23,771 nucleotides of DNA from a virus (taxonomy: Duplodnaviria > Heunggongvirae > Uroviricota > Caudoviricetes). A program made the translations under genes and the position numbers. This document shows, one piece after another, positions 2,595 through 23,771 of the stretch (the first letter of the stretch is position 1; every line of letters begins with the position of its first letter). The stretch is taken from the IMG/VR virus record IMGVR_UViG_2671180577_000029; one strand, given 5' to 3'. The notes beneath the pieces were generated by a model. The model was not told the origin of the DNA. It made no database searches and saw only the letters and a list, made by a program, of their open reading frames with translations.

Positions 2595-2664
2595 TACTGC
2601 CGGTGTCGGCGGGATGGTTGAATCATCTGCCGAGCCAGCCCATTTTCATCAAAAACAGGTTTCA

Positions 2665-3948
2665 TTATTTAGCCCTCACCAGAAAGTTAAATGCAATATT
2701 TCGCGGTCTGACAGCAACAAAATTCACACCATCACCCACAGAGTTACTGGTGAAATTAAATCGTGAAAATCCTGGCTGATTTCCGGCGATGCCATCATGA
2801 AAGTTAATTGCGTGTCCCGCACCTCCGCCTATATTCCCGGCAAACTGAGAAAAGTTTGTAGCTTCCTGCCAGCTTAATAATTCGCGACCACCGTCTGCAC
2901 CTCGCCCGTCATCCCAGATACGAATGAAATCACCGCGGGCTTCAGGTAATACCAGCGAAGGAAATACTTTCGCCAGCACAGGATAATCAGTGGCAGAGAA
3001 TTTCGCGCCGTTGAACTTCAAAAACACCATACTGGACCAGCTGTCGATTACAGTATTTGGCATTGCAGCGGACGGCCAGAAGAACGGAACGCCAATAGCT
3101 GGAGAACCTTCTCCCAAACCAAGGTATGCGAGAAGACCGGCAACATCCTTTCCACTCAAATGAGTCAGCGTATTGTCCAGCGGTTGTTTACCTGCCAGCG
3201 CATTGTTAATGGTGGTGCTGAATTTCGGGTCATTGTTAATGGCTGCGGCAATTTCTTTCAGTGTGTCCAGCGTGGCAGGCGCACCATTAATCAGAGCGGT
3301 AATAGCAGCCTGTACAAACGCAGTGGTCGCAATCCGCGTGGTGTTATTTCCTGCATCAGGAGTCGGCGCTTTTGGTTCTCCGGTAAATGTCGGATTATGT
3401 TTCTGTGCATACTGGGTATGAGGATCCTGTGCGGCAATGTGGTTTCTCATCTGGTCATCCACATACAGCCTTAATTCCAGGACTTCATCATCCACGTATT
3501 TACGGGTCGCCAGTACCACCGACGGGTCGATTTTCAGCGTAATAGCTTCGGTATTCGTGACAACCAGAATCATGCGGATAGTCTGGGTACGACCGCTGCC
3601 TTCCTGTAACTGCGGTTTGTACGTTTCCGGGCAGTTCGCCACCGCAATGAGTACGCCTTCATCATCATAAAGCCCAATCTCACGGATCCAGAATCCACCC
3701 TCGTTCTCAGGGATGATTTGCTCCGCAATAATCTGGCTCTGGTTGTTCGGGTCAACACTCAGAAGATTCAGCGGCGCGATGCGTTTCTGGTTAATCAGTT
3801 TTGTCTGTGCCGGGTCTGGTGTCGGCAAGACACCATTCGCATCACCAACGGCCATTTGCGTCAGATTCAGCTTACTGCCAAGCATCGTCGCGTTAGCCAG
3901 CCGTGCTGCGCCCTGATTAGTCAGAATGGCGTAGTATTTCACTGTCAT
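2665..3948 (-). CDS. H: Tail fiber protein (P2 gpH-like), proximal copy, Glu at residue 362
   Basis: 427-aa ORF identical to 153..1436 except Glu instead of Ala at residue 362 (codon 2865..2863 GAA versus GCA). Confidence 0.85.
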   Translation of the reverse strand: MTVKYYAILTNQGAARLANATMLGSKLNLTQMAVGDANGVLPTPDPAQTKLINQKRIAPLNLLSVDPNNQSQIIAEQIIPENEGGFWIREIGLYDDEGVLIAVANCPETYKPQLQEGSGRTQTIRMILVVTNTEAITLKIDPSVVLATRKYVDDEVLELRLYVDDQMRNHIAAQDPHTQYAQKHNPTFTGEPKAPTPDAGNNTTRIATTAFVQAAITALINGAPATLDTLKEIAAAINNDPKFSTTINNALAGKQPLDNTLTHLSGKDVAGLLAYLGLGEGSPAIGVPFFWPSAAMPNTVIDSWSSMVFLKFNGAKFSATDYPVLAKVFPSLVLPEARGDFIRIWDDGRGADGGRELLSWQEATNFSQFAGNIGGGAGHAINFHDGIAGNQPGFSRFNFTSNSVGDGVNFVAVRPRNIAFNFLVRAK

Positions 3949-4556
3949 GCGTTTACTCTCAGGTTATCAATTAAATGAATGGCCGAGGCCGGGAAATAAT
4001 CCCCTCCGACAATAATGGCCTCCGGGGTGTAGGGATAAACTGTCAGGGCGTCGCCGTGATAGCATCCCGCACCGGCAAAAATGTTGCCGGTTGTACTTAA
4101 ACTGATAGCCAGTCCCGTCAGATGGCGGCTTGCCGGTTTTGCATCAGCAACGAGGCGCTCCAGCTCCTGATACATTTCCTCGGTAATACCCTGCTCAAGC
4201 ACGCCAACAACGATACGGAACGTCCCCGGCTCCTCATTGAGTTGCCACCACTCCCTCACCTCAATCAGATAGCCGAGCGGCTCCACCACACGCCGGATTG
4301 CGCCTATAGTGCCCTTATGGCAGTGAATGAAATACGCATCGCGGATAACAGCGCGTTTTGTCGCTTCCGCCCACTTATCATCCCAGCGGTCAACCGAAAA
4401 TGACCACGCCAGCCACGGCAGCAGATTTGCCGGGCAGGTGTCCGGGTTCCACAGCTCACGAATACTGACCGGCGTTTTTTCAATTTCCGCACAGGCTTTT
4501 GCAGCAGCGACTTCAAGCGGTGATGAGCCGGTCGGCAGCAGGCGCAAATCACTCAT
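3945..4556 (-). CDS. I: Baseplate assembly protein I (P2 gpI-like)
   Basis: 203-aa ORF with N-terminus MSDLRLLPTGSSPLEVAAAKAC; lies between J and H as in P2. Confidence 0.9.
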   Translation of the reverse strand: MSDLRLLPTGSSPLEVAAAKACAEIEKTPVSIRELWNPDTCPANLLPWLAWSFSVDRWDDKWAEATKRAVIRDAYFIHCHKGTIGAIRRVVEPLGYLIEVREWWQLNEEPGTFRIVVGVLEQGITEEMYQELERLVADAKPASRHLTGLAISLSTTGNIFAGAGCYHGDALTVYPYTPEAIIVGGDYFPASAIHLIDNLRVNA

Positions 4557-5457
4557 CCGAGCCTCCGGTCACGACGCGGTATTCGGTACAGAAAGACGCC
4601 TGCGTACTGTTGAGCACGATGTCGACCAGTGGTGAAGCCAGTTCAACACGCTGCACGCCTTCCACATGCAAAGCGGCATAAATGGCAGACAGACGGATGT
4701 CACGCCCCAGCCGGTGCTGTGCCGTGATGTACGCTTCCAGTTTTTTCACGGCGGCAGCGCGTATGGGTTCGCTTTCGGGACCAGGGTAAAGGTAAAGCGT
4801 GGCGTTTATCTGGTATTCAACAATGGCGGCAGACTGCACGGTCACGCGGTCGGCCACCGGTCTGACGTCCTCGCCATTAAGGGCGTTACGCACCACGGCC
4901 AGCAGGTCTTCGGATGCGACACCATTATTTTCACGTGACAGCACAGAGATGGTGACGCAGGCCGGAGACGGACTGGTGACAGAAATATCGGCGACACGCC
5001 CGTCGGCACTGCGACCATGATACTGATAGGCTCCCACCGACCCGGCGACGCTTAAGCCCTCAAACGCCTGCTGAATACGCAGCCGATAATCGGTGTCAGA
5101 TTCCATTACTGCCGGTGTCGGCGGGATGGTTGAATCATCTGCCGGGGTGATAATCAGGCGTGTGGTGTTGTAATTGGCACCAATCACATCAAGGTCATTA
5201 CCGGCTGCACAGGCCAGCATCACCGCCCGTGCAGCCTCATTCACACGCTGACGCCAGATAAGCTCACGATAAGCATTTTCCTCCAGCAGTTTGACGAGAG
5301 GCTCAGATTCCAGTGTCAGGGTACGGGCGACCGCCTCCTGCTGGTCTTCCGGGTAAAGGGAAATCAGTGTCGCCTTGCGTTCGGCAAGAATGGTTTCAAA
5401 GTCCAGCTCCTCGACCACATCCGGTGCGGGTAGCTGGTTCAGGTCGATAATCGGCAT
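4549..5457 (-). CDS. J: Baseplate assembly protein J (P2 gpJ-like)
   Basis: 302-aa ORF, the same length as P2 gpJ; follows W and precedes I. Confidence 0.9.
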   Translation of the reverse strand: MPIIDLNQLPAPDVVEELDFETILAERKATLISLYPEDQQEAVARTLTLESEPLVKLLEENAYRELIWRQRVNEAARAVMLACAAGNDLDVIGANYNTTRLIITPADDSTIPPTPAVMESDTDYRLRIQQAFEGLSVAGSVGAYQYHGRSADGRVADISVTSPSPACVTISVLSRENNGVASEDLLAVVRNALNGEDVRPVADRVTVQSAAIVEYQINATLYLYPGPESEPIRAAAVKKLEAYITAQHRLGRDIRLSAIYAALHVEGVQRVELASPLVDIVLNSTQASFCTEYRVVTGGSDE

Positions 5458-9875: not shown

Positions 9876-9974
9876 GACTACCTCTGAAAAGTCGGGCGGT
9901 GGACGCCGGTGCAGTGTCAGGTGATTCACCCTCACTGACCGGCGTGCCGCCCTGGCGCGGGGCGCATTCGGTTG

Positions 9975-10718
9975 TTAACTGGCTTTCTTTTTCGGGCGTC
10001 CACGTTTTGCCGGTGCCACGCTCCGGGTCTTACGCGGGGCGCGGGTGGCCGCTTTTGGCTGCGGCTCCGGCTTCGGTTTCAGTTCCCGCTCCAGTCGTTC
10101 AATCTCTTTTTTGACGCCTGCCTGACAGTCGAGCTGTGTCGCACGTTGCAGGTGCGCCAGCGCACCGGCGGCATCACCACCGTCACGCAGAAACAGACCG
10201 GTAATTTTGTGCAGCTTTGCGCGCACTTCATCAGGCATGTCAGCCGTGGCGGTCAGTTCAAGGGTCTCCGTCAGCAGGCGGGTATCCACAGACTCACCGG
10301 CAGCGTGAGCGCGCATGGCCGCAAGCGCTACCTCCTCGGTGAACATGTACGGCGGGGTACGGCGGTGTTTACCCGGCATGGTCAGACCGTACTTCAGGGC
10401 ATAACGGGCAATCTCCAGCGCACCGGCAATATCGCCGGTATCCAGACGCCACAGCATGACCGTCATCAGAATGTCATCCTGTGCACCTTTGCCCTGCTCC
10501 AGCACGCCGTTCACCCACGGCAACCAGAACGGCAGCAGTTCGCGTTTTTTCGCGGCCTTCAGCTCTTTTGAATAAATCGCTTTCAGTGTGCGCTGGTCTG
10601 CGGCGAGCTTAACCAGCATCTGCTCATAGACAGTTGCATGTCGCAGCGGGGCGGCTTCCCGCTGCGCGGTCATCGCTGCCGAGACCCGCATCATGTGGCG
10701 CTGTGCGGGACTCGTCAT
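9975..10718 (-). CDS. M: Terminase endonuclease (small) subunit M
   Basis: 247-aa ORF beginning MTSPAQRHMMRVSAAMTAQREAAPLRH; same length as P2 gpM; basic Lys/Arg-rich C-terminus. Confidence 0.9.
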   Translation of the reverse strand: MTSPAQRHMMRVSAAMTAQREAAPLRHATVYEQMLVKLAADQRTLKAIYSKELKAAKKRELLPFWLPWVNGVLEQGKGAQDDILMTVMLWRLDTGDIAGALEIARYALKYGLTMPGKHRRTPPYMFTEEVALAAMRAHAAGESVDTRLLTETLELTATADMPDEVRAKLHKITGLFLRDGGDAAGALAHLQRATQLDCQAGVKKEIERLERELKPKPEPQPKAATRAPRKTRSVAPAKRGRPKKKAS

Positions 10719-12708: not shown

Positions 12709-12881
12709 TGTCAGGAGTCCTGAATAGTGATTAGAGGAGTCACATGTCGGCATCAGTTTCCCGACGATACGCATCCTCCGCCATCAGTCCCGGATGGCTT
12801 ATCACTGACACAACAGCACCTTAGCGAATCGCGGGGCGCGACTCAGTAGCCTTGCCGTGTATTCATCACGGCGAGGTATTC
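12709..12881. promoter_or_regulatory. Divergent late-promoter region between O (minus) and P (plus)
   Basis: 173-bp non-coding spacer between divergently oriented operons, as for the P2 late promoters PO and PP. I could not find a canonical TGT-N12-ACA activator dyad here, so elements are not mapped. Confidence 0.4.
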
Positions 12882-14654
12882 ATGACCATCACCACAGACA
12901 CCACTCTTTTACACGACCCGCGTCGTCAGGCGGCGCTGCTGTACTGGCAGGGGTTTTCCGTGCCGCAGATTGCCGCCATGTTGCAGATGAAACGCCCGAC
13001 GGTGCAGAGCTGGAAACAGCGCGACGGCTGGGACAGCGTTGCCCCCATCAGCCGTGTCGAAATGAGTCTGGAAGCGCGGCTGACCCAGCTCATCATCAAA
13101 CCGCAGAAAACCGGCGGTGACTTCAAGGAAATTGACCTGCTAGGACGCCAGATTGAACGACTGGCACGGGTCAACCGCTACAGTCAGACCGGCAACGAGG
13201 CAGACCTTAATCCGAACGTCGCTAACCGCAACAAAGGCGGGCGTCGCAAACCGAAAAAGAATTTTTTCAGTGACGAGGCCATCGAAAAGCTGGAGCAGAT
13301 TTTCTTTGAGCAGTCTTTCGACTATCAGTTGCACTGGTATCGCGCCGGGCTTGAGCACCGCATCCGCGATATCCTGAAATCCCGCCAGATTGGCGCAACG
13401 TTTTATTTTTCCCGCGAGGCGCTGCTGCGCGCCCTGAAAACCGGCCATAACCAGATTTTTCTGTCGGCCAGTAAAACGCAGGCGTATGTGTTCCGTGAAT
13501 ACATCATCGCCTTTGCCCGGCTGGTTGACGTTGACCTGACCGGTGACCCGATTGTCCTGGGCAATAACGGCGCAAAACTGATTTTTCTCGGCACCAACTC
13601 CAACACCGCACAGAGCCATAACGGCGACCTGTACGTCGACGAGATTTTCTGGATCCCGAATTTTCAGGTACTGCGTAAGGTGGCATCAGGTATGGCCTCA
13701 CAGAGTCACCTGCGTTCGACCTATTTCTCCACCCCGTCCACGCTGGCGCACGACGCCTACCCGTTCTGGTCGGGTGAACTGTTTAACCGGGGACGCGCCA
13801 GCGCCGCCGAACGCGTGGAAATCGACGTCAGTCATAACGCCCTTGCCGGTGGACTTCTCTGTGCGGACGGCCAGTGGCGGCAGATTGTCACCATTGAGGA
13901 CGCCCTGAAAGGCGGCTGCACGCTGTTCGACATTGAGCAGCTCAAACGCGAAAACAGCGCCGACGATTTTAAAAACCTGTTCATGTGTGAATTTGTTGAC
14001 GACAAGGCGTCGGTGTTCCCGTTCGAGGAGCTGCAACGCTGCATGGTCGACACGCTGGAAGAATGGGAAGACTATGCGCCGTTTGCCGCGAATCCGTTCG
14101 GCTCCCGCCCGGTATGGATTGGTTACGACCCGTCACACCGTGGCGACAGCGCCGGATGCGTGGTACTGGCACCGCCGGTGGTGGCCGGTGGCAAATTCAG
14201 AATACTTGAGCGTCACCAGTGGAAAGGCATGGACTTTGCCACTCAGGCTGAATCCATCCGCAAACTCACCGAGAAATACAACGTCGAATACATCGGTATT
14301 GATGCCACCGGCCTCGGTGTCGGCGTGTTCCAGCTCGTGCGCTCGTTCTATCCCGCCGCACGCGACATCCGCTACACGCCGGAAATGAAAACCGCAATGG
14401 TGCTCAAGGCCAAAGACGTTATCCGCCGTGGCTGTCTGGAATATGACGTCAGCGCCACCGACATCACCAGCTCGTTTATGGCTATCCGCAAGACCATGAC
14501 CAGCAGCGGACGCAGTGCCACCTATGAGGCCAGCCGCAGCGAGGAAGCCAGCCACGCCGACCTCGCCTGGGCGACCATGCACGCCCTGTTAAATGAGCCA
14601 CTCACCGCCGGTATCAGCACCCCGCTGACATCCACCATTCTGGAGTTTTACTGA
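12882..14654 (+). CDS. P: Terminase ATPase (large) subunit P
   Basis: Start set at ATG 12882 (MTITTDTTLLHDPRRQAALLY) with GAGG 5 nt upstream, giving 590 aa as in P2 gpP. Confidence 0.92.
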   Translation: MTITTDTTLLHDPRRQAALLYWQGFSVPQIAAMLQMKRPTVQSWKQRDGWDSVAPISRVEMSLEARLTQLIIKPQKTGGDFKEIDLLGRQIERLARVNRYSQTGNEADLNPNVANRNKGGRRKPKKNFFSDEAIEKLEQIFFEQSFDYQLHWYRAGLEHRIRDILKSRQIGATFYFSREALLRALKTGHNQIFLSASKTQAYVFREYIIAFARLVDVDLTGDPIVLGNNGAKLIFLGTNSNTAQSHNGDLYVDEIFWIPNFQVLRKVASGMASQSHLRSTYFSTPSTLAHDAYPFWSGELFNRGRASAAERVEIDVSHNALAGGLLCADGQWRQIVTIEDALKGGCTLFDIEQLKRENSADDFKNLFMCEFVDDKASVFPFEELQRCMVDTLEEWEDYAPFAANPFGSRPVWIGYDPSHRGDSAGCVVLAPPVVAGGKFRILERHQWKGMDFATQAESIRKLTEKYNVEYIGIDATGLGVGVFQLVRSFYPAARDIRYTPEMKTAMVLKAKDVIRRGCLEYDVSATDITSSFMAIRKTMTSSGRSATYEASRSEEASHADLAWATMHALLNEPLTAGISTPLTSTILEFY

Positions 14655-15688
14655 TGAGCAAGAAAAAAGGGAAAACACCGCAACCTGCGGCAAAAAAAAT
14701 GACCGCCAGCGCCCCGAAAATGGAAGCATTCACCTTTGGTGAGCCGGTGCCGGTACTCGACCGCCGTGACATTCTGGATTACGTCGAGTGCATCAGTAAC
14801 GGCAGATGGTATGAGCCACCGGTCAGCTTTACTGGTCTGGCAAAAAGCCTGCGTGCTGCCGTGCATCACAGCTCACCAATTTACGTCAAACGCAATATTC
14901 TGGCCTCGACATTTATCCCGCATCCGTGGCTTTCTCAGCAGGATTTCAGCCGCTTTGTGCTGGATTTTCTGGTGTTCGGTAATGCGTTTCTGGAAAAGCG
15001 TTACAGCACTACCGGTAAGGTCATCAGACTGGAAACCTCACCGGCAAAATATACCCGCCGTGGGGTGGAGGAGGATGTTTACTGGTGGGTGCCGTCCTTC
15101 AACGAGCCGACACCTTTCACGCCCGGCTCCGTGTTTCACCTGCTGGAGCCGGATATTAATCAGGAGCTGTACGGCCTGCCGGAATATCTCAGCGCCCTTA
15201 ACTCTGCCTGGCTGAATGAGTCGGCCACGCTGTTCCGCCGCAAGTATTACGAAAACGGCGCACATGCCGGATACATCATGTACGTCACTGATGCCGTGCA
15301 GGATCGCAACGATATCGAAATGCTTCGCGAAAACATGGTTAAGTCGAAAGGCCGCAATAACTTTAAAAATCTGTTTCTCTATGCCCCACAGGGGAAAGCC
15401 GACGGCATTAAAATTATCCCGCTCAGTGAAGTGGCAACGAAGGACGATTTTTTTAATATCAAAAAAGCCAGCGCCGCTGACCTGCTGGACGCGCACCGCA
15501 TCCCCTTTCAGTTGATGGGGGGCAAGCCGGAGAACGTCGGGTCGCTGGGTGATATTGAGAAAGTGGCAAAGGTCTTTGTCCGCAATGAGCTTATCCCGTT
15601 ACAGGACAGGATCCGCGAGATAAACGGCTGGCTCGGTCAGGAGGTCATCCGCTTTAAAAACTACTCACTGGACACTGACAACGGCTGA
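14654..15688 (+). CDS. Q: Portal protein Q
   Basis: 344-aa ORF, same length as P2 gpQ; start overlaps the P stop (TGATG). Confidence 0.92.
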   Translation: MSKKKGKTPQPAAKKMTASAPKMEAFTFGEPVPVLDRRDILDYVECISNGRWYEPPVSFTGLAKSLRAAVHHSSPIYVKRNILASTFIPHPWLSQQDFSRFVLDFLVFGNAFLEKRYSTTGKVIRLETSPAKYTRRGVEEDVYWWVPSFNEPTPFTPGSVFHLLEPDINQELYGLPEYLSALNSAWLNESATLFRRKYYENGAHAGYIMYVTDAVQDRNDIEMLRENMVKSKGRNNFKNLFLYAPQGKADGIKIIPLSEVATKDDFFNIKKASAADLLDAHRIPFQLMGGKPENVGSLGDIEKVAKVFVRNELIPLQDRIREINGWLGQEVIRFKNYSLDTDNG

Positions 15689-15693
15689 ACATC

Positions 15694-15715
15694 GCCGCCT
15701 GCGGGCGGCTTTTTT
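15694..15715 (+). terminator. Rho-independent terminator after Q
   Basis: GCCGCC-tgcg-GGCGGC hairpin (15694..15709) followed by a run of six T (15710..15715). Confidence 0.7.
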
Positions 15716-15857
15716 ACAACCCGCCATCACGCCCTCACACGCTCACCACCGCACAAAACAGCCCGCAGACACACCAACGCCCCGGCTAACAATCTAAACG
15801 CCATCACGACGCGCTCAGACGCTGAAAAAATAAAATCAGCACCACCGCCAGCGCGCA

Positions 15858-15876
15858 GTGCTTTCCCCGCCTCGCC
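15858..15876. other. cos cohesive-end site (19 nt)
   Basis: Plus strand reads GTGCTTTCCCCGCCTCGCC, the reverse complement of the P2 19-nt cohesive end GGCGAGGCGGGGAAAGCAC (recalled from the literature, not looked up); it lies about 170 bp past Q, as at the P2 left end. Confidence 0.8.
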
Positions 15877-16037
15877 CGCCCGCTTCATGGGGTGTTTTTA
15901 ATGCAGGTGCAATACCGCTTTTGAGCCACGCCCGTTCTGGCGGACGCACGGCCGGAACATGCAACTCCGGCACATGCAAAACCATGCACATATTGCACGC
16001 AGAAAGATAAATGCCAAAATACCTAAATCAACTTCCA

Positions 16038-17876
16038 TTAATCAGTCAGATAAGGTTCAACTTTATCTTCCCATACACTAAATAAAGGCAAACAAGTTAA
16101 ATAAAAGATAAAGACACAGGCAAAAACTGAAGTTGGTTGATAACAATGATTTACAGTATACCTGCCATGAGCCATCGTGTGTCTAATTGCAGCACCACCT
16201 TTCATATTGAACAATAAATCCATAGTCAATACATGATCACTCCCCAAAATACCTTCCATTTCACTCTTATAATTTGCAAGCATTTGAGATAGACTAGTAG
16301 CCTCCTCAAAAAGTGACACATCTATTTTCGTTGTTTCTTTTCTTCTTAATTCTAAAATCCATCTAATTGAATTCTCCAACTGCGGCAACAACAAATAACA
16401 GGCAGACACATAATCCCCCTGCCAAAGCTTAAGAAATCCTAAAGAAAATATTTCCGCATACCCAGGAGGAACAAATAGACTTTGTTGTGAGATTGGGTCA
16501 AATGTATTCTCATTTAATGAATACCTAGACAACACTCTTTGCCTAACAACTTCAAACTCACCATAAACATAAAACTGATGCTCAATATTACTAGTTCTTA
16601 AATAATTTACACAGGCATCATCTAGACTTATATCCCCAGCAGAATCTAAAGGTGGTTGCCTTGCCACAACGCGTCCTCTGTCATCATAAAAAACCGTATC
16701 ACTCACATTAACAAAAAAATATCTCTTAGCATCAGAGCGAGCTCTTTCCATAATCTCACTGGCACTTACAACCTTAAATCTAGAGATTAATTTTTTAATT
16801 ATTTCTGAGAAATTTAATTGATTATAAATATGCTCTTTCTGAGCGATAACATCACTAAGATCCATTGGTATTGCAAAGGAATACATTTCATCATTGATTT
16901 GATCTCGAATAGAATTTAATTCCTCTTTAATCTCTTTAATCCTTTCACTCATTCCACCAATCGCTCTAAATTCCCCAAGAGCAACTCTTAGCCAATGAGC
17001 CTTCAATGTTGGAGATGAAGACTGTTCAAATTGAGCCAATGTTATTTCTGTCGCTTTCATTTTGCACCTTCTTCCTTGCTCTTCCATATCATTTTTAACA
17101 TATAATTCAGACGCAAAATAAAACAATTTTTTCACAGCATCAAAATAAGAAGCTCCACAATGCTCATCAGCTATCTTTTCTGCATTCTTAGCCAATTGTA
17201 AGGGGCACAATAAATTATTCTTATAAAGAATTTCAGAAATTCTTAAAACACCGATAAATATACTAGAATCTATTAATATATGATATAGCCTTAACGTCGA
17301 GTCAACTATCCCTCCTTGCAGTTGTTTTTTCCTGCCAATAAGCATGCGCGATATTGTAATACCTCTATCCAAGCAGTCAACAACATCAAAAACATGGATG
17401 TCACCTGATTCCTTTTTTTCTAACAAAGTATCACAAGCATCATTAATCATTAGAGCATATGACTCTATTGCTTTATTAGCAGAATCTATATCCTTACGGT
17501 TATTTATCCATAAAACATCACACACCCTAGATATAATATAAGGGTTATCAGTATTTTCTTTAATACAAGTTAATATGGTTAAATAATTATCCTTGTAATC
17601 TGAAGGTCTATAACCTCGCTTAGGATAGAGAATGATTTTAGACTCAAAGTCGATAATATCACCAGACTTAGAAAATTTTAAACTAAATAACGAACGTAAT
17701 AAATAGCAAACCCTCCAAGAACTCACATCTTTTTTTTGCTTATAAAATGACAACAACTGAAAAAAATAAGATTCCATTTCAAAATAAGAATGGCTTCTTG
17801 GTGGTAACAATATACTGGCGTACTCACTTTTTTTAAAATCATCAACTGAAATAGAAAAAACATCGAACTCGCTCAT
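16038..17876 (-). CDS. Hypothetical 612-aa cargo protein of unknown family in the tin/old accessory locus; candidate defense or lysogenic-conversion protein
   Basis: Long intact ORF with strongly AT-rich composition (about 30% GC in sampled 60-nt stretches) against GC-rich phage flanks. AAAGGTGAGGA precedes the ATG. No Walker A motif seen. C-terminal RHTMAH (R565-H570) resembles a HEPN Rx4-6H motif, but this is weak evidence. Confidence 0.75.
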   Translation of the reverse strand: MSEFDVFSISVDDFKKSEYASILLPPRSHSYFEMESYFFQLLSFYKQKKDVSSWRVCYLLRSLFSLKFSKSGDIIDFESKIILYPKRGYRPSDYKDNYLTILTCIKENTDNPYIISRVCDVLWINNRKDIDSANKAIESYALMINDACDTLLEKKESGDIHVFDVVDCLDRGITISRMLIGRKKQLQGGIVDSTLRLYHILIDSSIFIGVLRISEILYKNNLLCPLQLAKNAEKIADEHCGASYFDAVKKLFYFASELYVKNDMEEQGRRCKMKATEITLAQFEQSSSPTLKAHWLRVALGEFRAIGGMSERIKEIKEELNSIRDQINDEMYSFAIPMDLSDVIAQKEHIYNQLNFSEIIKKLISRFKVVSASEIMERARSDAKRYFFVNVSDTVFYDDRGRVVARQPPLDSAGDISLDDACVNYLRTSNIEHQFYVYGEFEVVRQRVLSRYSLNENTFDPISQQSLFVPPGYAEIFSLGFLKLWQGDYVSACYLLLPQLENSIRWILELRRKETTKIDVSLFEEATSLSQMLANYKSEMEGILGSDHVLTMDLLFNMKGGAAIRHTMAHGRYTVNHCYQPTSVFACVFIFYLTCLPLFSVWEDKVEPYLTD

Positions 17877-17988
17877 TCCTCACCTTTAAAGCACTTAACA
17901 AACAACCATGGCAAACAATACCAAACTGCAAGTAACAACTAAATATATACAGTACGAAACTATCTAAGATCTCGTGAATTTTTGCCAT
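17842..17988 (-). CDS. Possible small hydrophobic ORF (48 aa) between A and the cargo gene
   Basis: ATG 17988..17986 overlaps the A stop (TAATG). Translation MAKIHEILDSFVLYIFSCYLQFGIVCHGCLLSALKVRNERVRCFFYFS contains one hydrophobic stretch. It overlaps the cargo gene start by 35 nt, and its ATG sits inside a candidate -10 element, so it may not be a real gene. Confidence 0.2.
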   Translation of the reverse strand: MAKIHEILDSFVLYIFSCYLQFGIVCHGCLLSALKVRNERVRCFFYFS

Positions 17989-18014
17989 TATATCCACTCC
18001 ATTACCGTTGAGAA
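17987..18014 (-). promoter_or_regulatory. Candidate sigma70 promoter for the cargo gene
   Basis: Minus strand reads TTCTCA (18014..18009), a 16-nt spacer, then TATAAT (17992..17987, a perfect -10) overlapping the A stop codon. Predicted start near 17980 would give a roughly 100-nt leader to the ATG at 17876. Confidence 0.35.
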
Positions 18015-20273
18015 TCCCGGCCACTCATCAGCGACCGGATACGTGAATTTTTTCCCGTCATAATTTACGGTCGCGCCACGCGCCAGCGCCTCAAGCTCCC
18101 ATCGCTGCGGCCTGATACCGTTCTGAGCAAGGTCAACACGGATACGGGTGATTTGCATTCGTTCCGACCGGGTCAGTCTGGCCGATGGCGCTATTTCATG
18201 CTGTTTTAACGGGCTTCCGTTTCTTTGCTGACGATTAGGTGTTCTCAGGCCGTGTTTTAATGCGCCCCTGAGCGCCCTCACGACCTCCGGCTCATTCCAT
18301 TCGATAACTCCGTCATCAACCAGATTAAGCACTGCTGCGGCGTGCTCAGAAGGTGTGGGAGCCGGTAACGAAGTATCACCACCGGTGAGCATTCCACAGT
18401 TATTGACAGGACTCCGAGGCGCGGCGATGCCGCTTTTTAAAGTCAAAGGCTCAACGACCGGCACTTTCGGAACAATGCGCCAGTCCGTCGTTCTGGTGAT
18501 ATGAATATGACGCGCGCCGAGATGCGGCGCGTAAATGCCGACCACTCTCTCGACTTCTTCCTCGTACTCGTTAACTTCATCCGACGGACTACGGGCGACC
18601 CTGACAGTCTGACAATCGCGCGGGACATTTGCCCCACCCTGCGCACTGATATACAACGCAAAATCGCCACTGTCTGCGGCAGCGCGTGCAGCCTCGACGC
18701 GTTCGTCAAACTCATCAGCAATGCTGACGCCGCGAGGCAATTTGCGTAGTTCACGGTAAGCCCCCATTGTCGGCAGACCAACCGTTTTAAATTGCGGGAT
18801 GCGCCACGTTGACGCCCATGCAGTAACAGCCGCGGCAGTATCTTTCAGAGGTCTGCCGGTATCGTTATCGAGCTGACCATCCAGTGCATAGCCGTCGATG
18901 TTTTTTGAGATGTATTTCGCGATATACCCCGCAGCACCGCCCCGATTAAGGTGTTTTGCCTGAAAACGGTTTCGCGCGGCTCCTCTTTCGTCGCCATCCT
19001 CTTTGAGCGCATAGCGACGCATGATTTCGATAATCTGGTTACGCTGGCGCGGATTACAAAAAAGCATCATATGCCAGTGCGGCGTTCCGTCGTGGTGTGG
19101 CTCGACGACACGCAAACCGTAGACCTGTAAATCATTATCCTTGAATGCCGTGCGCATCAGGCTCCAGATACGGCAGAGATAACGCTGCGCATCCTTTGGA
19201 TTAAATGCCTCATCGTTCCAGCCGTGATTTAGCTGGACGGTTTTACTTTCGCCTTTTCCAACCTGACGTGTCGGGTGATACTTTGACGGCGCGGTCAGCG
19301 TGATAAACATCCCCACATCACCCTCTGCTGCGGCGTAACGCTCAATACCGGCAATGGTGTTCATCAGCTCCATCCGGCGAATTTCAGGATTAGAAATACT
19401 GCCCATCACCTTACTGATAAGGTCGATGCGCTCGCCGGTTTCCCTGTTTTCGAGATCACACGATTTAAGAAATTCCAGATTTGCCTGGCGGCGTGCACGC
19501 ACATCACGAATGGCATGTTTACTGGCATAAGGAGAACGGTCTTTATTGACCTCCCCGACAGCAATCAGTAACGCCTCATGCCAGCGCATACGCTGGCCTT
19601 TAAGCTGACTAATCCACCACTCATCGTTAAACAGACGGGCAATGGCAGAATATGCCTGCCTCGTGGTCATCTGCCCTTTACGGTATTTTTTCCAGTAGAG
19701 AGGGGAAATATTGAAAGCTCGTGCAGCGCCAGCAACATGACCATACAGGTGAGCCTGTGCCTCATCCGTAAACAGCGATTCTTTCTCGCCATGCGCATCC
19801 ACCCAGGCATCGCAGAGTTCCTCATACATCATGAAAAGCTGCGATGAGATACGGGCGGCAAACTTTTTCAGCTCCTTGTCATTCATCCCCGGCAGACGCG
19901 CATAATGGTCACGCTCTGCCAGAAACAGCAACGACGCGTCGGTGTTCATTTCATGGCGCTGATTCACACGCTCAATGCGCGGCCATAAACGACGCTGAAA
20001 AGTGGATGTGAGAAAATAAAACCCGTGCACCGGGCTTTTATTGCGCCGGATGTAGTCATAGCGTGAAGTAAACAGCGAGCGCAAAAAGTAAGGCAGGCGG
20101 TTAATCGTGGATAAAACACCTTGCACCTGACGCATCTCGTCACGTGTAAGGGGTCTTTCGCGCCCGACGGCCTCGCGTGGCGCGTTCCATGCATAAGCAC
20201 CGGTAAACGCCTTACCGGTGCCTGCGGCAAATGCTGACGGAGGGACAAAACGCCCGGAGGCTTTAACGGCCAT
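17988..20273 (-). CDS. A: Replication initiation protein A (rolling-circle initiator)
   Basis: Start set at ATG 20273..20271 (MAVKASGRFVPPSAFAAGTGK), giving 761 aa as in P2 gpA; the longer ORF-track start at 20315 is a TTG and would overlap the upstream gene. Confidence 0.92.
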   Translation of the reverse strand: MAVKASGRFVPPSAFAAGTGKAFTGAYAWNAPREAVGRERPLTRDEMRQVQGVLSTINRLPYFLRSLFTSRYDYIRRNKSPVHGFYFLTSTFQRRLWPRIERVNQRHEMNTDASLLFLAERDHYARLPGMNDKELKKFAARISSQLFMMYEELCDAWVDAHGEKESLFTDEAQAHLYGHVAGAARAFNISPLYWKKYRKGQMTTRQAYSAIARLFNDEWWISQLKGQRMRWHEALLIAVGEVNKDRSPYASKHAIRDVRARRQANLEFLKSCDLENRETGERIDLISKVMGSISNPEIRRMELMNTIAGIERYAAAEGDVGMFITLTAPSKYHPTRQVGKGESKTVQLNHGWNDEAFNPKDAQRYLCRIWSLMRTAFKDNDLQVYGLRVVEPHHDGTPHWHMMLFCNPRQRNQIIEIMRRYALKEDGDERGAARNRFQAKHLNRGGAAGYIAKYISKNIDGYALDGQLDNDTGRPLKDTAAAVTAWASTWRIPQFKTVGLPTMGAYRELRKLPRGVSIADEFDERVEAARAAADSGDFALYISAQGGANVPRDCQTVRVARSPSDEVNEYEEEVERVVGIYAPHLGARHIHITRTTDWRIVPKVPVVEPLTLKSGIAAPRSPVNNCGMLTGGDTSLPAPTPSEHAAAVLNLVDDGVIEWNEPEVVRALRGALKHGLRTPNRQQRNGSPLKQHEIAPSARLTRSERMQITRIRVDLAQNGIRPQRWELEALARGATVNYDGKKFTYPVADEWPGFSTVMEWI

Positions 20274-20538
20274 ATGAGCCAAAAGCCTCTGAACAACGCT
20301 TGCTGAGTTGCTCAACCTGCGCGTTTAAATCAGCAAAAGACTTTGCGCTTCCGGTCAGAATATCGTGATGCATCAGGCCGGAAACGAGCTGGCTTAATTT
20401 CGGGTAATAACCAACCACCGACAGCCATTCCTGACCGGCGTTTTTACCGCTTTCCGCTCTCTTTTTCTCGTGGAGAATAAACTGAAAGCTGTCACTGGTA
20501 ACGACATAACGTTCGCCAATTTCGATACGAATACTCAT
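20263..20538 (-). CDS. Hypothetical protein (P2 orf83 position)
   Basis: 91-aa ORF immediately upstream of A; ATGA overlap with the preceding ORF. Confidence 0.6.
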   Translation of the reverse strand: MSIRIEIGERYVVTSDSFQFILHEKKRAESGKNAGQEWLSVVGYYPKLSQLVSGLMHHDILTGSAKSFADLNAQVEQLSKRCSEAFGSYGR

Positions 20539-20759
20539 GCCATTCTCCGGTAATGTTTGTTTTTTGCTTCAAAGACTGACTGACAGGAAACACAACGCGT
20601 GGCTGACGGATAAGCCGCACGACGGGCAGCAGGTATTGGCGCGTCACACTCTTCGCAAACCAGCGCAGAAGCACCGCAATGTTTTACCCTTGCCGCGTTA
20701 ATCTGGCGCTCCAGTAATTCAGCCTGTTGTTCCTGAATAAAATCTACGTTGTCCGGCAT
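20535..20759 (-). CDS. DksA/TraR-family C4 zinc-finger protein
   Basis: 74-aa ORF with CEEC and CVSC pairs spaced as in the TraR/DksA zinc finger; one of four small ORFs between B and A, as in P2. Confidence 0.7.
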   Translation of the reverse strand: MPDNVDFIQEQQAELLERQINAARVKHCGASALVCEECDAPIPAARRAAYPSATRCVSCQSVFEAKNKHYRRMA

Positions 20760-21064
20760 TACCAGTTCCTTTTGTCGTTAAGGTTTTTAAATTCATCAGC
20801 GCAATAACTGGCAATTTCTGTCGTTAATTTCGTCAGTTCATCCACGGAGGAGATTTGCTTGTGAAATACAGCGCGTTTAACAAGTAAATTGACCACATCA
20901 GACAGGAGATTTAATTCGTTCTGATAAATCGCGATAACAGACTCAGTTATTTCGCGTTTTTCTTTATCAAGACCAAGTTGAATAAGAGACAAATCGCCAT
21001 TTTTCATAACGGCGATTTTTAGGGCGTTATTCAGTAATACAACTGAACGAGAACAGGACATCAA
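20759..21064 (-). CDS. Hypothetical protein (P2 orf81 position)
   Basis: 101-aa ORF, translationally coupled to its neighbours. Confidence 0.55.
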
Positions 21065-21285
21065 AGCACCTCCCCGCGAGACAATCCGATATTGTGAAAT
21101 TTTTCCGACTCCTGACTGAGCAGCTCGACTATCTCCACGCGGGATAACTCCGCCTTTGTGATGTGGCGAATCATGGCGTCAAGATGAGAAGAAAAGCGCG
21201 TCGCAGCGTCGGCCTGTGCTTCGGTTCTGGCCTGTTGCAGCATTAATGCGTATATACCGCACTGATTTTCAGAAACTGTATGCAT
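21061..21285 (-). CDS. Hypothetical protein (P2 orf80 position)
   Basis: 74-aa ORF downstream of B. Confidence 0.55.
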
Positions 21286-21348
21286 GACTTTCTCCAGGCA
21301 AAAAGAAGCCCCGCACGATTAAGTGCGTTAAAAACTCTGGTTAATTAT

Positions 21349-21849
21349 TTAATGCAGATATTGCTCTGGTTTTACCGACGTCAGAATTGTCGGTGCATAC
21401 TCAAACAGGCTGAATAATTCACGTAATGCACGGAACAAAGCATCACGCCAGTAACATGATTCTTCATTAATTCGCCAGTATGGCTGGTTGAATTCTTTTT
21501 CAGTCAGTCGTGCGTGCATAAATAAAGTGCGACGCTGACTGACTGTTAAAAAACTAATATATGCATACTCACTTGCGCCAACCTGACGGCGTTTTGAGAA
21601 TGCGCCACGCAATTCATCAATTGCACAAACCAGCCGTTCACGTTCGACGTCGTTCATTTCTTCAAAACGCATCGTTGCGTGACGTTGTTTTAACTGCGCA
21701 TGAAAGCAAACTGTTAGCCGTTCGCGCTCCATCATCTGATTATAATAATCACATGTATCCTGCCAGCGAGGAACGGCAAGATGCTTACCAATTATCCGGC
21801 GCATAGCTGCTGGCTGTTTTTCAACGAGATTGAGCGTCATCACTGTCAT
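21349..21849 (-). CDS. B: Replication protein B
   Basis: 166-aa ORF, same length as P2 gpB; lies between the orf78-like ORF and the small-ORF cluster. Confidence 0.85.
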   Translation of the reverse strand: MTVMTLNLVEKQPAAMRRIIGKHLAVPRWQDTCDYYNQMMERERLTVCFHAQLKQRHATMRFEEMNDVERERLVCAIDELRGAFSKRRQVGASEYAYISFLTVSQRRTLFMHARLTEKEFNQPYWRINEESCYWRDALFRALRELFSLFEYAPTILTSVKPEQYLH

Positions 21850-22043
21850 TTCCAGGCCCTCCGGCTTTTCAGAAAGGTCAGAGCCTTTTTTAACGGACTC
21901 TGTTTTTTGGTGCGGATAATGATTCCCTTGCGCCCCTTCCCGTGGGTGATGGTGAAGTCAATCGCCCTGGGGCTTTCGTTACGCAATAACTGAGCAATAC
22001 AACGCGGCTCATTCATAATCACAACCCCATCCACAAAAGCCAT
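21846..22043 (-). CDS. Hypothetical protein (P2 orf78 position)
   Basis: 65-aa basic ORF between cox and B; ATGA overlap with B. Confidence 0.5.
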   Translation of the reverse strand: MAFVDGVVIMNEPRCIAQLLRNESPRAIDFTITHGKGRKGIIIRTKKQSPLKKALTFLKSRRAWK

Positions 22044-22291
22044 GCATCACGCTGTTCAACCGGTCGGTTATAAAACGCCTCACGTACAGCGCGATTAAAC
22101 TCAGGAATGAAAACCCATTTTTCACCGGCACGAGCCTTCGGTTTGCAAGGATCACGCAATTCAATAATTGGTAATTTATTTGCCTTCACCATTTCACTGA
22201 CGGCTGTCTTTGGCTTCCCTAATAAATCAGCAAATTTATCCACATGAACCGCATCAAGCGGATACTGAATCACATAATTTTCAGCGTCCAT
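22019..22291 (-). CDS. cox: Cox excisionase / early-operon regulator
   Basis: C-terminus ...RDAWLLWMGL matches the P2 Cox family signature. Start set at ATG 22291 (GAGGG 8 nt upstream), giving 90 aa; the alternative ATG at 22306 is possible. Confidence 0.8.
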   Translation of the reverse strand: MDAENYVIQYPLDAVHVDKFADLLGKPKTAVSEMVKANKLPIIELRDPCKPKARAGEKWVFIPEFNRAVREAFYNRPVEQRDAWLLWMGL

Positions 22292-22427
22292 ATATGGTAC
22301 CCTCATAGGATCCAGCCCTTTCTAAACCACTCAAAACCGTTTAGACGCTGGTTTATTCTCAAATCAATGGAACCTATATAGGTTCCAGTTTTGAGGGAAT
22401 TTAGTCCCTATATAGGCACCATGTCAA
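22292..22427. promoter_or_regulatory. Immunity switch region between cox and C (early and repressor promoters plus operators)
   Basis: 136-bp spacer between divergently oriented cox and C. Contains an 18-bp perfect palindrome GGAACCTATATAGGTTCC (22369..22386) and a second CCTATATAGG (22407..22416); each carries a TATATA that could serve as a -10. Confidence 0.65.
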
Positions 22428-22721
22428 ATGAAATTAAGCGAAAAGATTAAGGCCTTGCGTGAGGCTGAAGGGCTAAGCCAATCAAAATTCTGTGAAATCA
22501 TAGAGTTACCGCTAAGCACACTTAAAAAATATGAAGGAGGAAACTTTGAACCCGGTGGCACAGCTTTGCTAAAAATCACTATGCATCCCACATTCCAAAA
22601 ATATGCTCTATGGCTTATGACAGATAAAACCGCGCCGGACGCAGGACAAATCGCACCGGCTCTCGCGCACATTGGGCCAGAGTCAACAGAGTCCAACCAC
22701 TCCGCGAAAAGGATTGGCTAA
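22428..22721 (+). CDS. C: Immunity repressor C
   Basis: 97-aa ORF containing QIAPALAHIG, which matches the P2 C repressor (QIAPALAH). Little or no leader or Shine-Dalgarno, so possibly a near-leaderless mRNA. Confidence 0.8.
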   Translation: MKLSEKIKALREAEGLSQSKFCEIIELPLSTLKKYEGGNFEPGGTALLKITMHPTFQKYALWLMTDKTAPDAGQIAPALAHIGPESTESNHSAKRIG

Positions 22722-22790
22722 CTCTATATAAAGATTACATTTTCACCATTTGCTACCAAGATGGTGAATACAGCGCCGGAGGGCTTTCTT

Positions 22791-23771
22791 ATGGCAATTA
22801 AGAAGCTCGATGATGGTCGCTATGAAGTGGACATTAGACCTCGCGGTCGCGACGGAAAACGCATCCGCAGGAAATTCGAAAGAAAAGCTGAAGCACTAGC
22901 ATTTGAGCGATACACAATCGCCAATGCCAGTCAGAAAGAATGGGGAGGCCAGCGAGCAGACCGCCGGACTTTGAGTGAGTTGCTGGACATCTGGTGGAAA
23001 TATCACGGGCAAAACCACGAGCATGGAACAAAAGAGTTTAATCATCTACTCAAAACCATCAGCGGCATAGGTGATATACCAGTGAGCAGGATGAGCAAAA
23101 GGGCTTTGATGGATTATCGTTCCATGCGACTACGTGATGGTATCAGTGCCTCAACGATAAACCGTGACATGTACAGATTATCCGGCATGTTCACAAAATT
23201 AATTCAATTGGATGAATTTTCCGGGCAACACCCAATTCACGGACTGCCGCCACTGGCGGAGGCCAACCCTGAAATGACGTTCCTGGAAAAAGCAGAAATC
23301 GAAAAACTGTTAAATGTTTTGGCTGGTGATGACTTACTTGTCGCGCTTTTATGTCTGAGCACTGGAGGAAGATGGACGGAAGTTGCCACGCTAAAACCAG
23401 CACAGATTACAAATTGCAGGGTTACCTTCCTGAAAACCAAAAACGGTAAAAAGCGAACCGTGCCGATTTCTGAGGAACTGGAGAAAAAAGTTAAAGAGGA
23501 GGCCAGCGCCAAATTATTCAAAGTTGATTATGAGAAATTTTGCGGGATTTTACGCAGAGTGAAACCTGATATACCACCCAATCAGGCAACCCACATCCTG
23601 CGGCATACATTCGCAAGCCATTTCATGATGAATGGGGGCAATATAATCGCACTGCAACAGATTCTGGGACATGCGAGCATTCAGCAGACGATGGCCTATG
23701 CGCACCTTGCGCCTGACTATCTGCAAAATGCCGTCGCTCTGAATCCACTAAAAGGCGGAGTGACGTTATAA
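22791..23771 (+). CDS. int: Tyrosine integrase (P2 Int-like)
   Basis: Start set at ATG 22791 (MAIKKLDDGRYEVDIRPRGRDGKRIRRKF) with GGAGGG upstream, giving 326 aa. C-terminus has the tyrosine-recombinase HxxR...Y region (HILRHTF...MAYAHL). Stop codon is the last three bases of the window. Confidence 0.9.
   Translation: MAIKKLDDGRYEVDIRPRGRDGKRIRRKFERKAEALAFERYTIANASQKEWGGQRADRRTLSELLDIWWKYHGQNHEHGTKEFNHLLKTISGIGDIPVSRMSKRALMDYRSMRLRDGISASTINRDMYRLSGMFTKLIQLDEFSGQHPIHGLPPLAEANPEMTFLEKAEIEKLLNVLAGDDLLVALLCLSTGGRWTEVATLKPAQITNCRVTFLKTKNGKKRTVPISEELEKKVKEEASAKLFKVDYEKFCGILRRVKPDIPPNQATHILRHTFASHFMMNGGNIIALQQILGHASIQQTMAYAHLAPDYLQNAVALNPLKGGVTL

Follow-up and report, generated by a model that had tools for sequence, protein, structure and literature searches.

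A low-GC cargo gene of the P2-like gpA–cos–gpQ hotspot encodes a PDC-S39-family HEPN protein, a candidate for phage defence

In the window, meaning the whole stretch of 23,771 nucleotides analysed, genes of phage P2 lie on both sides of one large open reading frame. The terminase gene gpP (12852–14654, plus strand) and the portal gene gpQ (14654–15688, plus strand) form one flank, and the replication gene gpA (17988–20315, minus strand, with its stop codon at 17988) forms the other. A 19-nt sequence, GGCGAGGCGGGGAAAGCAC, which we take to be the P2 cos site, has a single exact match in the window, where none is expected by chance (15858–15876, minus strand), and it bounds the hotspot. The reading frame between cos and gpA (16038–17876, minus strand) encodes a protein of 612 residues, and its stop codon is 162 bp from the cos match. 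It is thus located in a recognised defence hotspot: the gpA–cos–gpQ locus, which in P2 itself holds old and tin (Rousset et al., 2022). The first-pass annotation had called this reading frame exactly and had assigned it to the tin/old locus, in agreement with our analysis.

Comparison with the cassette type of E. coli S88 defines the limits of the variable cargo segment (15916–18020). Homology between the two ends at 15915 and restarts at 18021, and the last ~11 codons of gpA fall inside the swapped part. The GC content is 0.30–0.35 in the four 500-bp bins spanning 16001–18000, compared with 0.51–0.59 in the flanks. The gene itself has a GC content of 0.332 and a GC3 of 0.258, whereas the value for gpP, gpQ and gpA is 0.547 (33% against 55%). 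The flanks are common to 79 P2-like phage records, only one of which contains the 612-codon gene. Based on the GC step, the proximity of cos, the rarity of the gene between common flanks and the segment boundaries, we conclude that the gene is horizontally acquired, low-GC cargo of a variable P2-like prophage hotspot, as had been proposed from its AT-rich composition.

The reading frame starts with ATG, contains no internal stop and encodes a protein of 70.8 kDa with a pI of 5.7. It is preceded by a Shine-Dalgarno sequence, GGTGAGG (17878–17884, minus strand). Compared with an 88%-identical allele, the gene has a dN/dS of 0.23; values lie between 0.16 and 0.32 in every segment, and no segment, including the putative sensor, shows diversifying selection in this comparison. 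The intact frame with its ribosome-binding site and the low dN/dS point to a genuine gene that is kept by purifying selection. P2 remnants that have decayed, with gpA, the terminase or gpM disrupted, still carry the gene unbroken. An identical protein is already present in public collections, and ORF612 of prophage P2-EC46, from a record that is presumably tied to the Odegrip 2006 study, is 88% identical.

The cassette of 2.1 kb brings its own upstream region (17877–18020, minus strand), which is kept between alleles except for a 42-bp indel. In addition to the Shine-Dalgarno sequence, this region contains a sigma-70-like site, TTCTCA-16 nt-TATAAT (18014–17987, minus strand), that overlaps the end of gpA. 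It scores 10/12 in a consensus scan in which the region holds no more promoter matches than shuffled sequences do. About 40 bp 3' of the stop codon, the same kind of scan identifies a putative, weak terminator-like hairpin of six pairs, three of them G-C, with a T-rich tail next to it (15983–15999, minus strand). The only other reading frame of the cassette is a non-conserved one of 48 codons (17988–17842), which is missing from more distant homologues. An Rfam search of the window gave no match.

The protein had been described as an orphan, a label that does not survive database searches. Residues 8–184 (17325–17855, minus strand) match the Pfam domain DUF7380 (PF24098) with 93 bits and an E-value of 2.5e-26, above the gathering threshold of 27 bits. 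Residues conserved in this family are R87, D93, R117, D120, W123, Y140 and R171. The PADLOC profile PDC-S39 (PDLC05011) matches at E 5.9e-73, aligning residues 8–599 with positions 7–583 of 595; with this full-length match from a stand-alone gene, the protein is a member of PDC-S39 and shows no structural difference from it. PDC-S39 is itself a candidate for defence through guilt by association only. The protein also matches phrog_5183, and the gene type of the window is listed as P2-hotspot system #55, 'DUF4209' (Rousset et al., 2022). An exhaustive search of representatives, clustered at 50% identity, returned 3,719 relatives at E ≤ 1e-3, mostly of 600–640 residues and matching end to end; a word-indexed search gave 10 relatives even with a profile of 137 sequences. 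An NCBIfam search with the protein returned nothing, and sequence searches of PDB chains, with the single protein or the 137-sequence profile, gave noise only. The family is large and already catalogued, and the gene is a sensible lead, not a new kind of thing.

The region following the start of DUF7380 is predicted to form a TPR-like alpha-solenoid (residues ~97–390; 16707–17588, minus strand), which overlaps the DUF7380 model and which we propose as a sensor or regulatory module. A fold search with the whole predicted model retrieved generic TPR and solenoid proteins only. In this model, helical repeats make up the N-terminal two thirds of the protein, a part that could serve as a sensor, consistent with the N-terminal sensor domain suggested in the first-pass annotation. 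The near-invariant polar residues of the N-terminal half are R87, D93, R117, D120, R171 and D398. From the alignment, this cluster resembles a fixed functional site more than part of a fast-evolving sensor, and it could be a new site for binding a ligand or trigger.

The C-terminal domain was masked in the whole-model fold search and was therefore modelled and searched alone. Residues 455–612 (16041–16514, minus strand) form a four-helix up-and-down bundle in the predicted model, the fold of HEPN domains, and are assigned to the DUF4209 or C6orf70/ERMARD family through homologues. HEPN domains are defined by an Rx4-6H motif at the junction of helices 3 and 4, with a polar residue after the arginine, and by an acidic residue in helix 2, typically within Ex3[KR] (PMC3710099). 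In the predicted model, R565-H-T-M-A-H570 (16167–16184, minus strand), with the polar H566 after the arginine, lies at the helix-3/helix-4 junction; it is an Rx4H motif of the kind that the first-pass annotation had suspected near the C-terminus. E501-N-S-I-R505 (16362–16376, minus strand) is an Ex3[KR] motif in the second helix, residues 489–510, and would supply the acidic residue of the active site. An alignment of 137 relatives at ~23% identity shows no substitution of E501, R565 or H570, and R505 reaches a conservation of at least 90%. Together, E501xxxR505 and R565x4H570 make up a complete predicted metal-independent RNase site, from which we infer that the protein is an RNase. The protein itself has no match to DUF4209 (PF13910; gathering threshold 22.3 bits) even at E ≤ 10. 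The threshold is passed by the full-length homologues P0006 (26.1 bits) and P0007 (25.4 bits) and by 47/52 and 60/69 relatives in two samples; DUF7380 and PDC-S39 are each found in 69/69 of the latter sample. With its own score below threshold, the DUF4209 assignment of the window protein rests on collinear homology. The last helix (residues 583–601) is strongly hydrophobic, with a Kyte-Doolittle value of 2.17. It is buried as HEPN helix 4 in the model, with a pLDDT of 96–99, so a membrane anchor is unlikely.

Several other identities were considered. Motif searches found no Walker A, YxDD or HxK-x4-D, nor GIY or DEAD, and the Pfam search returned no such domain, which supports the earlier statement that the protein is not an OLD-type ATPase, reverse transcriptase, phospholipase D, TIR or SIR2 protein. 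The OLD family and Tin were also rejected on searches of Pfam, PADLOC and NCBIfam, in which Old, Toprim and Tin gave no match, and the reverse-transcriptase and phospholipase-D readings on the absence of their motifs and domains. A HEPN-MNT toxin-antitoxin pair is not compatible with the cassette, which has no adjacent MNT gene and encodes a protein of 612 residues, not about 130.

The relatives are patchily distributed across phyla, among them Proteobacteria, Deinococcus, Chloroflexota, cyanobacteria, Bacillus and one haloarchaeon, and are often found on plasmids, in prophages or in islands flanked by integrases. Among complete E. coli genomes, 21/5,426 carry the gene, and all inspected loci are the swap-prone P2 slot. 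Variants of 52%, 35% and 33% identity fill this slot in further P2-like prophages. In IMG/VR, 17/23 loci are those of P2-like elements, flanked by gpA and gpQ; the query for related loci was a 7-sequence alignment, so those recovered are skewed to close, mostly P2-borne relatives. A relative of 28% identity adjoins two integrases, QatABCD, an MmeI-type restriction-modification enzyme and RES-Xre. Outside P2, the neighbours at 11 loci include Lamassu, Pycsar, DRT, SoFic, PifA, DrmC and integrases; many non-P2 neighbourhoods also hold ordinary metabolic genes, and the defence neighbours are a raw tally. The loci show an association of the relatives with the P2 hotspot as well as with integrases and known systems of defence.

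On balance, we favour, with slightly more confidence than doubt, a single-polypeptide conflict protein that acts against phages or mobile elements as a sensor-RNase of the abortive-infection type. Its dimer activation, trigger, RNA target and defence phenotype we infer as follows. The cassette-borne promoter would drive expression in the lysogen, where the protein would stay inactive. DUF7380 and the TPR-like solenoid, ~450 residues in all, would serve as a sensing or autoinhibitory module. During infection by a phage or satellite, a cue from the invader would bind or alter the solenoid, upon which two HEPN domains, the C-terminal 160 residues of each copy, could form a composite active site. 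This site would cut cellular or phage RNA (tRNA, rRNA or mRNA), translation would stop and the infection would be aborted. The first-pass annotation had suggested an abortive-infection function, which stays at the level of a proposal, and the hotspot paralogue, the 'Putative HEPN' system of E. coli S88, is listed only among additional tested systems. Points that count against the favoured reading are this unvalidated paralogue, the absence of a demonstrated defence phenotype for any family member from the literature searched, the score of the protein below the DUF4209 threshold, the fixed-looking N-terminal residues, the fact that no segment exceeds a dN/dS of 0.32, the metabolic neighbours and a promoter that is a consensus match where matches are not enriched. 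It is conceivable, and we hold it tentatively, that PDC-S39 is a true and very widespread single-protein immune sensor-RNase, which P2-like phages gain and lose at their cos-proximal hotspot, and that the negative result for the S88 system reflects trigger specificity. In that case, the function of the bacterial lineage of the HEPN family ancestral to human ERMARD (C6orf70) would become accessible for the first time.

The protein might instead be a conflict or toxin module that confers no broad abortive-infection defence, either a toxin for addiction to, or stabilisation of, the prophage or a narrow exclusion factor directed at other P2-like phages, P4-type satellites or plasmids. A narrow exclusion factor would be missed by standard panels of lytic phages, and the hotspot paralogue is missing from the list of systems validated with a panel of eight phages; cargo of this hotspot can act on P2 relatives (Rousset et al., 2022). 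Retention of the gene in decayed prophages is expected of an addictive or host-beneficial element, and the HEPN fold is common to the toxins of HEPN-MNT and RnlA/LsoA. Against a toxin, no conserved gene of antitoxin size is adjacent, since the small reading frame at 17988–17842 is absent from distant homologues, and the cassette holds no MNT partner. Relatives outside phages, moreover, adjoin classical anti-phage systems. We consider this explanation unlikely, though it deserves attention.

By analogy, the protein could also be an RNA-processing or regulatory factor of the prophage or host, for example a stress-linked RNA decay enzyme of the kind proposed for eukaryotic ERMARD/C6orf70, and have no part in immunity. 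The family includes the C6orf70 lineage, for which housekeeping RNA decay at the ER membrane is predicted; the very hydrophobic last helix would suit such a location, but in the model it is the buried helix 4. The conserved polar residues of the N-terminal half point to a constant ligand or partner, and some homologues lie among metabolic genes. The foreign composition, the rarity of the gene in E. coli, with the inspected copies all in the P2 slot, and the patchy, mobile-element-borne relatives are typical of conflict genes, not of housekeeping ones, and make this reading quite improbable. We regard it as highly improbable that the HEPN domain is a non-nuclease, whether a module that only binds RNA or nucleotides or a scaffold or adaptor for an activity in the N-terminal region. 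The strict conservation of E501, R565 and H570 at such low overall identity argues against it, as does the observation that non-catalytic HEPN families have lost Rx4-6H while DUF4209 is classed as catalytically active (PMC3710099).

If the favoured reading is correct, a family of ~3,700 clusters would count as a defence system and no longer as a candidate only, and one more single-protein sensor-RNase would join the immune genes exchanged by temperate phages at this locus. The family would also offer an experimentally tractable system in bacteria for studying the HEPN domain of human ERMARD, for which an RNase role is predicted. The literature searched contained no defence phenotype for any PDC-S39/DUF7380 member and no functional studies on DUF7380, ERMARD with HEPN, HEPN-TPR or PF13910. 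Of smaller, practical value is the annotation: we suggest 'PDC-S39-family HEPN (DUF7380/DUF4209) protein, candidate phage defence' in place of 'orphan'.

Among known systems, P2 Old and Tin occupy the same slot as the window gene and share its presumed role of excluding competing phages, but are unrelated proteins; the window protein has neither a Walker A ATPase nor a Toprim domain. Single-protein HEPN nucleases of abortive-infection or anticodon type include AbiV, the C-terminal HEPN domain of AbiA and RnlA/LsoA, as well as AbiD/F, AbiJ, PrrC/RloC and ApeA. The window protein has no detectable sequence kinship with these outside the HEPN core, and its DUF7380/TPR-like N-terminal module is not known from them.

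The closest comparison within the hotspot is system #13, 'Putative HEPN', from E. coli S88, which was cloned with its native promoter as pFR103 and is missing from the validated systems, its only entry being in Table S2B, 'additional tested systems' (Rousset et al., 2022). In that study only 3/8 additional P2-hotspot systems tested showed activity, and type #55, that of the window, is absent from the table of tested systems. Like the window gene, the S88 system is a single low-GC gene in the gpA–cos slot with its own upstream region. The two proteins are collinear over ~600 residues, and both contain the ExxxR and RHxxAH motifs. They differ in that the protein of the S88-type cassette in phage vB_EcoM-569R9 is only 33% identical to the window protein, with different cassette boundaries, and in that 'Putative HEPN' is the commoner type, with 193 locus occurrences compared with 76 for #55 (Rousset et al., 2022).

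By way of its close relatives, the C-terminal domain is homologous to DUF4209, of the C6orf70/ERMARD family of HEPN domains. This family is described as catalytically intact, as fused to TPRs in bacteria and as linked to restriction-modification operons (Anantharaman et al., 2013). Its eukaryotic members are predicted to be housekeeping proteins anchored in the ER membrane, whereas the window protein lacks a convincing transmembrane segment and is encoded in a phage hotspot.

The first-pass annotation had described an AT-rich 612-codon gene in the P2 accessory slot, and the gene, its composition and its position are all confirmed. The ORF occupies 16038–17876 on the minus strand, with an ATG start and a Shine-Dalgarno sequence (GGTGAGG) 4–5 nt upstream. 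The GC content drops to 0.30–0.35 over 16001–18000, versus 0.51–0.59 on either flank; the gene itself has a GC of 0.332 and a GC3 of 0.258, and its neighbours gpP, gpQ and gpA stand at 0.547. Replication gene A (17988–20315, minus strand) lies on one side, and cos, the portal gene (14654–15688, plus strand) and the terminase gene (12852–14654, plus strand) on the other. The 19-nt P2 cos sequence occurs once in the window, at 15858–15876, 162 bp past the stop codon of the gene. Elsewhere, 20501–23771 has a GC of 0.42–0.48, versus 0.51–0.62 for most P2 genes of the window. The window also starts with a near-perfect tandem duplication of 2,512 bp (121–2632 and 2633–5144, ~100% identical in 100-bp bins), which could be real or an assembly artefact. 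The duplicated ORFs encode 427 aa (153–1436 and 2665–3948) and 203 aa (1433–2044 and 3945–4556); a third ORF differs in length between the copies, with 185 aa in the first and 302 aa in the second.

The gene is not an orphan, as had been claimed: Pfam, PADLOC-DB, PHROGs and public proteins all match its product. In the profile search that the annotation had proposed, Pfam DUF7380 matches residues 8–184 with 93 bits (cut-off 27), and both PADLOC-DB models of PDC-S39 match over their full length (E 5.9e-73 and 1.6e-68). PHROGs gives an end-to-end match to phrog_5183, of unknown function. Public collections hold an identical protein, labelled 'DUF7380 domain-containing protein', and relatives at 88%, 76%, 52% and 49% identity under the same label. 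The gene type is listed in Table S5B of Rousset et al. as system #55 ('DUF4209', 76 occurrences), beside a second type, #13 ('DUF4209', 193 occurrences) (Rousset et al., 2022; PMC9122126). The sequence of system #55 shares its first 23 residues with the 612-aa protein and corresponds to the 88% allele. Databases and the 2022 paper's supplementary tables already contain the gene, its locus, the family models and the HEPN prediction.

The PDC-S39 family is large. When 1.84 billion cluster representatives were searched exhaustively with a profile, 3,719 matched with E<=1e-3 and 1,121 with E<=1e-30; most are 600–640 aa long and align end to end. All 69 sampled members match DUF7380 and PDC-S39, and 60 of the 69 match DUF4209; the 612-aa protein itself falls below the Pfam DUF4209 model, and collinear homologues score above it. 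One of the 69 also matches Pfam DUF4238 (E 3e-6), which could be a fusion, a hybrid or a remote relationship; DUF4238 is the domain of a single-gene P2-hotspot system validated against T7 (Rousset et al., 2022; PMC9122126).

Structure prediction and a similarity search, also proposed earlier, indicate that the C-terminal domain resembles HEPN proteins. The AlphaFold2 model, built with a 137-sequence alignment (pLDDT 95, pTM 0.85), is nearly all helical with three small hairpins. Searched alone, the C-terminal domain matches Csm6 (at 7.3, 6.9 and 6.4), HEPN toxins of HEPN-MNT pairs (7.0 and 6.9) and the AbiA C-terminal domain (6.8), as well as HI0074 and sacsin; Roquin, RnlA/LsoA, Csx1, MtlR, Las1 and AbiV rank lower. 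Catalytic HEPN domains carry Ex3[KR] in helix 2 and Rx4-6H, with a polar residue after the arginine, at the helix-3/4 junction (Anantharaman et al., 2013; PMC3710099). The suspected C-terminal HEPN-like motif proves real, since both signatures are present, as E501-NSI-R505 and R565-H-TMA-H570, each in the expected helix of the model and conserved in relatives. Across 137 relatives with a median identity of ~23%, only E501, R565 and H570 are invariant, and conservation is 90% or higher at R505, P498, G561 and G571. A non-catalytic HEPN domain is therefore unlikely. DUF4209 was described as the C6orf70 (ERMARD) HEPN family, with conserved catalytic residues, found more often in bacteria than in eukaryotes, its bacterial members being 'fused to TPR' and occurring 'in R-M related operons' (PMC3710099). 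The architecture of the 612-aa protein thus fits this computational description from 2013. In the N-terminal half, R87, D93, R117, D120, W123, Y140, R171, D398 and G401 are near-invariant, suggesting a fixed binding or interface site rather than a rapidly diversifying sensor surface. A membrane anchor through residues 583–601 (Kyte-Doolittle 2.17) is unlikely, as this segment is buried helix 4 of the confident HEPN model. A pattern scan of the protein agrees with the earlier negative claims: Walker A, YxDD and PLD HxK motifs are absent, likewise GIY and DEAD, and a Pfam search found no corresponding domain.

The gene is under purifying selection. Set against the allele of E. coli ECC-1470, which is 88% identical, it has an overall dN/dS of 0.23, with values of 0.16–0.32 in all segments; the dS of 0.244 is roughly double the value for neighbouring gpA.

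The cos-proximal gpA–gpQ interval is a hotspot, where P2 carries old and tin and 1,650 gene arrangements occur in E. coli (Rousset et al., 2022; PMC9122126). A neighbourhood comparison, suggested in the first-pass annotation, bears out its variability here. When 15600–18100 was compared with 50,697 phage records by megablast, 79 matched via the flanks and only one covered the gene (AM157366.1, 'Bacteriophage P2-EC46 proviral ORF612', source ECOR46). Relative to a P2-like phage with other cargo, homology ends at 15915 and restarts at 18021, so the swapped segment is ~2.1 kb long and takes in the final ~11 codons of gpA. It contains a sigma-70-like site (TTCTCA-16-TATAAT, 18014..17987) that is kept in the identical allele; the site is no more than a consensus match, and promoter-like matches are not enriched in this region. 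A consensus scan gives a weak terminator-like hairpin 3' of the gene. A 48-codon minus-strand ORF (17842–17988, MAKIHEILDSFVLYIFSCYLQFGIVCHGCLLSALKVRNERVRCFFYFS), whose ATG overlaps the gpA stop (TAATG), overlaps the first 35 nt of the 612-aa gene. In the 88% allele it is still open (55 aa) despite a 42-bp in-frame insertion, but it is absent upstream of more distant homologues; it may serve as a leader or in coupling, or may have arisen by chance. In the prophage of the 35% homologue P0008 (locus L007), a second partial gpA 3' end (9968–10163, 196 bp, 75% identical to window 18007–18202) follows the DUF7380 gene and precedes further cargo, apparently a trace of cassettes stacked through recombination at this end of gpA. 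The ECC-1470 locus (L003), in the prophage of the 88% allele, encodes two additional hypothetical proteins, WP_023567683 and WP_087891114, at 2955–3687, between portal and cos, across cos from the DUF7380 gene; its homology to the window is broken over 15594 to 15850. This three-gene arrangement is in the Rousset tables, as is another in which an RVT_1 reverse transcriptase accompanies the gene (PMC9122126).

The gene is present in 21 of 5,426 complete E. coli genomes, always chromosomal and single copy, and lies between gpA and portal at both E. coli loci inspected. The same slot of other P2-like prophages is filled by variants with identities of 52% (in an Enterobacter, where the P2 remnant is decayed), 35% and 33%; one P2-slot relative comes from a Salmonella sequence that was deposited as a plasmid. 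The gpA and gpQ flanks occur at 17 of 23 IMG/VR loci encoding relatives, in a search biased to close relatives. Outside P2, a 28% relative adjoins two integrases, complete QatABCD, a RES-Xre pair and an R-M enzyme of the MmeI type. On a Cedecea plasmid, an IS3 element and three genes annotated as a 'three component ABC system' are found close to the copy. Raw tallies for 143 ORFs at 11 non-P2 loci include PADLOC matches to QatA-D, LmuA/B, PycC/PycTM, DRT reverse transcriptases, SoFic (two ORFs), PifA, DrmC and PDC-S24, Pfam matches to four integrases and two transposases, and ordinary metabolic genes. Plasmid-borne relatives occur in Klebsiella, Aeromonas, Pantoea, Xanthomonas, Bradyrhizobium, Deinococcus, Bacillus, a Chloroflexota species and the haloarchaeon Natrinema. 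In E. coli VE-V10-F (99.9% identity), the gene is intact in a P2 remnant whose gpM and terminase are pseudogenes; in the Enterobacter-type remnant (52%), it is intact beside a gpA in three fragments. This suggests that the cargo gene is kept after prophage decay.

The best-supported reading is that the protein is a single-polypeptide sensor-effector, in which a helical-repeat module controls a HEPN RNase; we regard the gene as a mobile-element-borne HEPN sensor-RNase candidate of family PDC-S39. It would be exchangeable cargo of a temperate phage, used against other phages or mobile elements. By analogy to characterised HEPN enzymes such as KEN/RNase L, PrrC/RloC, Csm6 and RnlA, two HEPN domains would pair for activity and cut RNA without a metal ion, halting translation. 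Part of this knowledge is summarised in PMC3710099. The analysis establishes the fold, the motifs, the size of the family and its context; activity, trigger, target and phenotype are all predicted.

Persistence of the intact gene in prophages with broken essential genes argues that it either benefits the host or is addictive. We consider it improbable that the protein is an addiction toxin or serves to exclude a narrow set of competitors. Non-immune RNA processing, the role predicted for ERMARD, is somewhat less probable still; the family is tied to this human protein, and the relatives sit in prophages and on plasmids. A literature search found no published phenotype for PDC-S39/DUF7380. An assayed relative, 'Putative HEPN' on plasmid pFR103, had been cloned together with its native promoter and appears only among the 'additional tested systems' of Table S2B, not among the validated ones; additional P2-hotspot systems showed activity in only 3 of 8 cases (Rousset et al., 2022; PMC9122126). 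This is a direct caution against the defence reading, and a narrow trigger range is possible because the panel comprised eight phages. The pFR103 gene, which originates in the P2 locus of E. coli S88, is the nearest tested relative. Phage vB_EcoM-569R9 carries this cassette type, and the phage protein shares 33% identity with the window protein across 603 aa.
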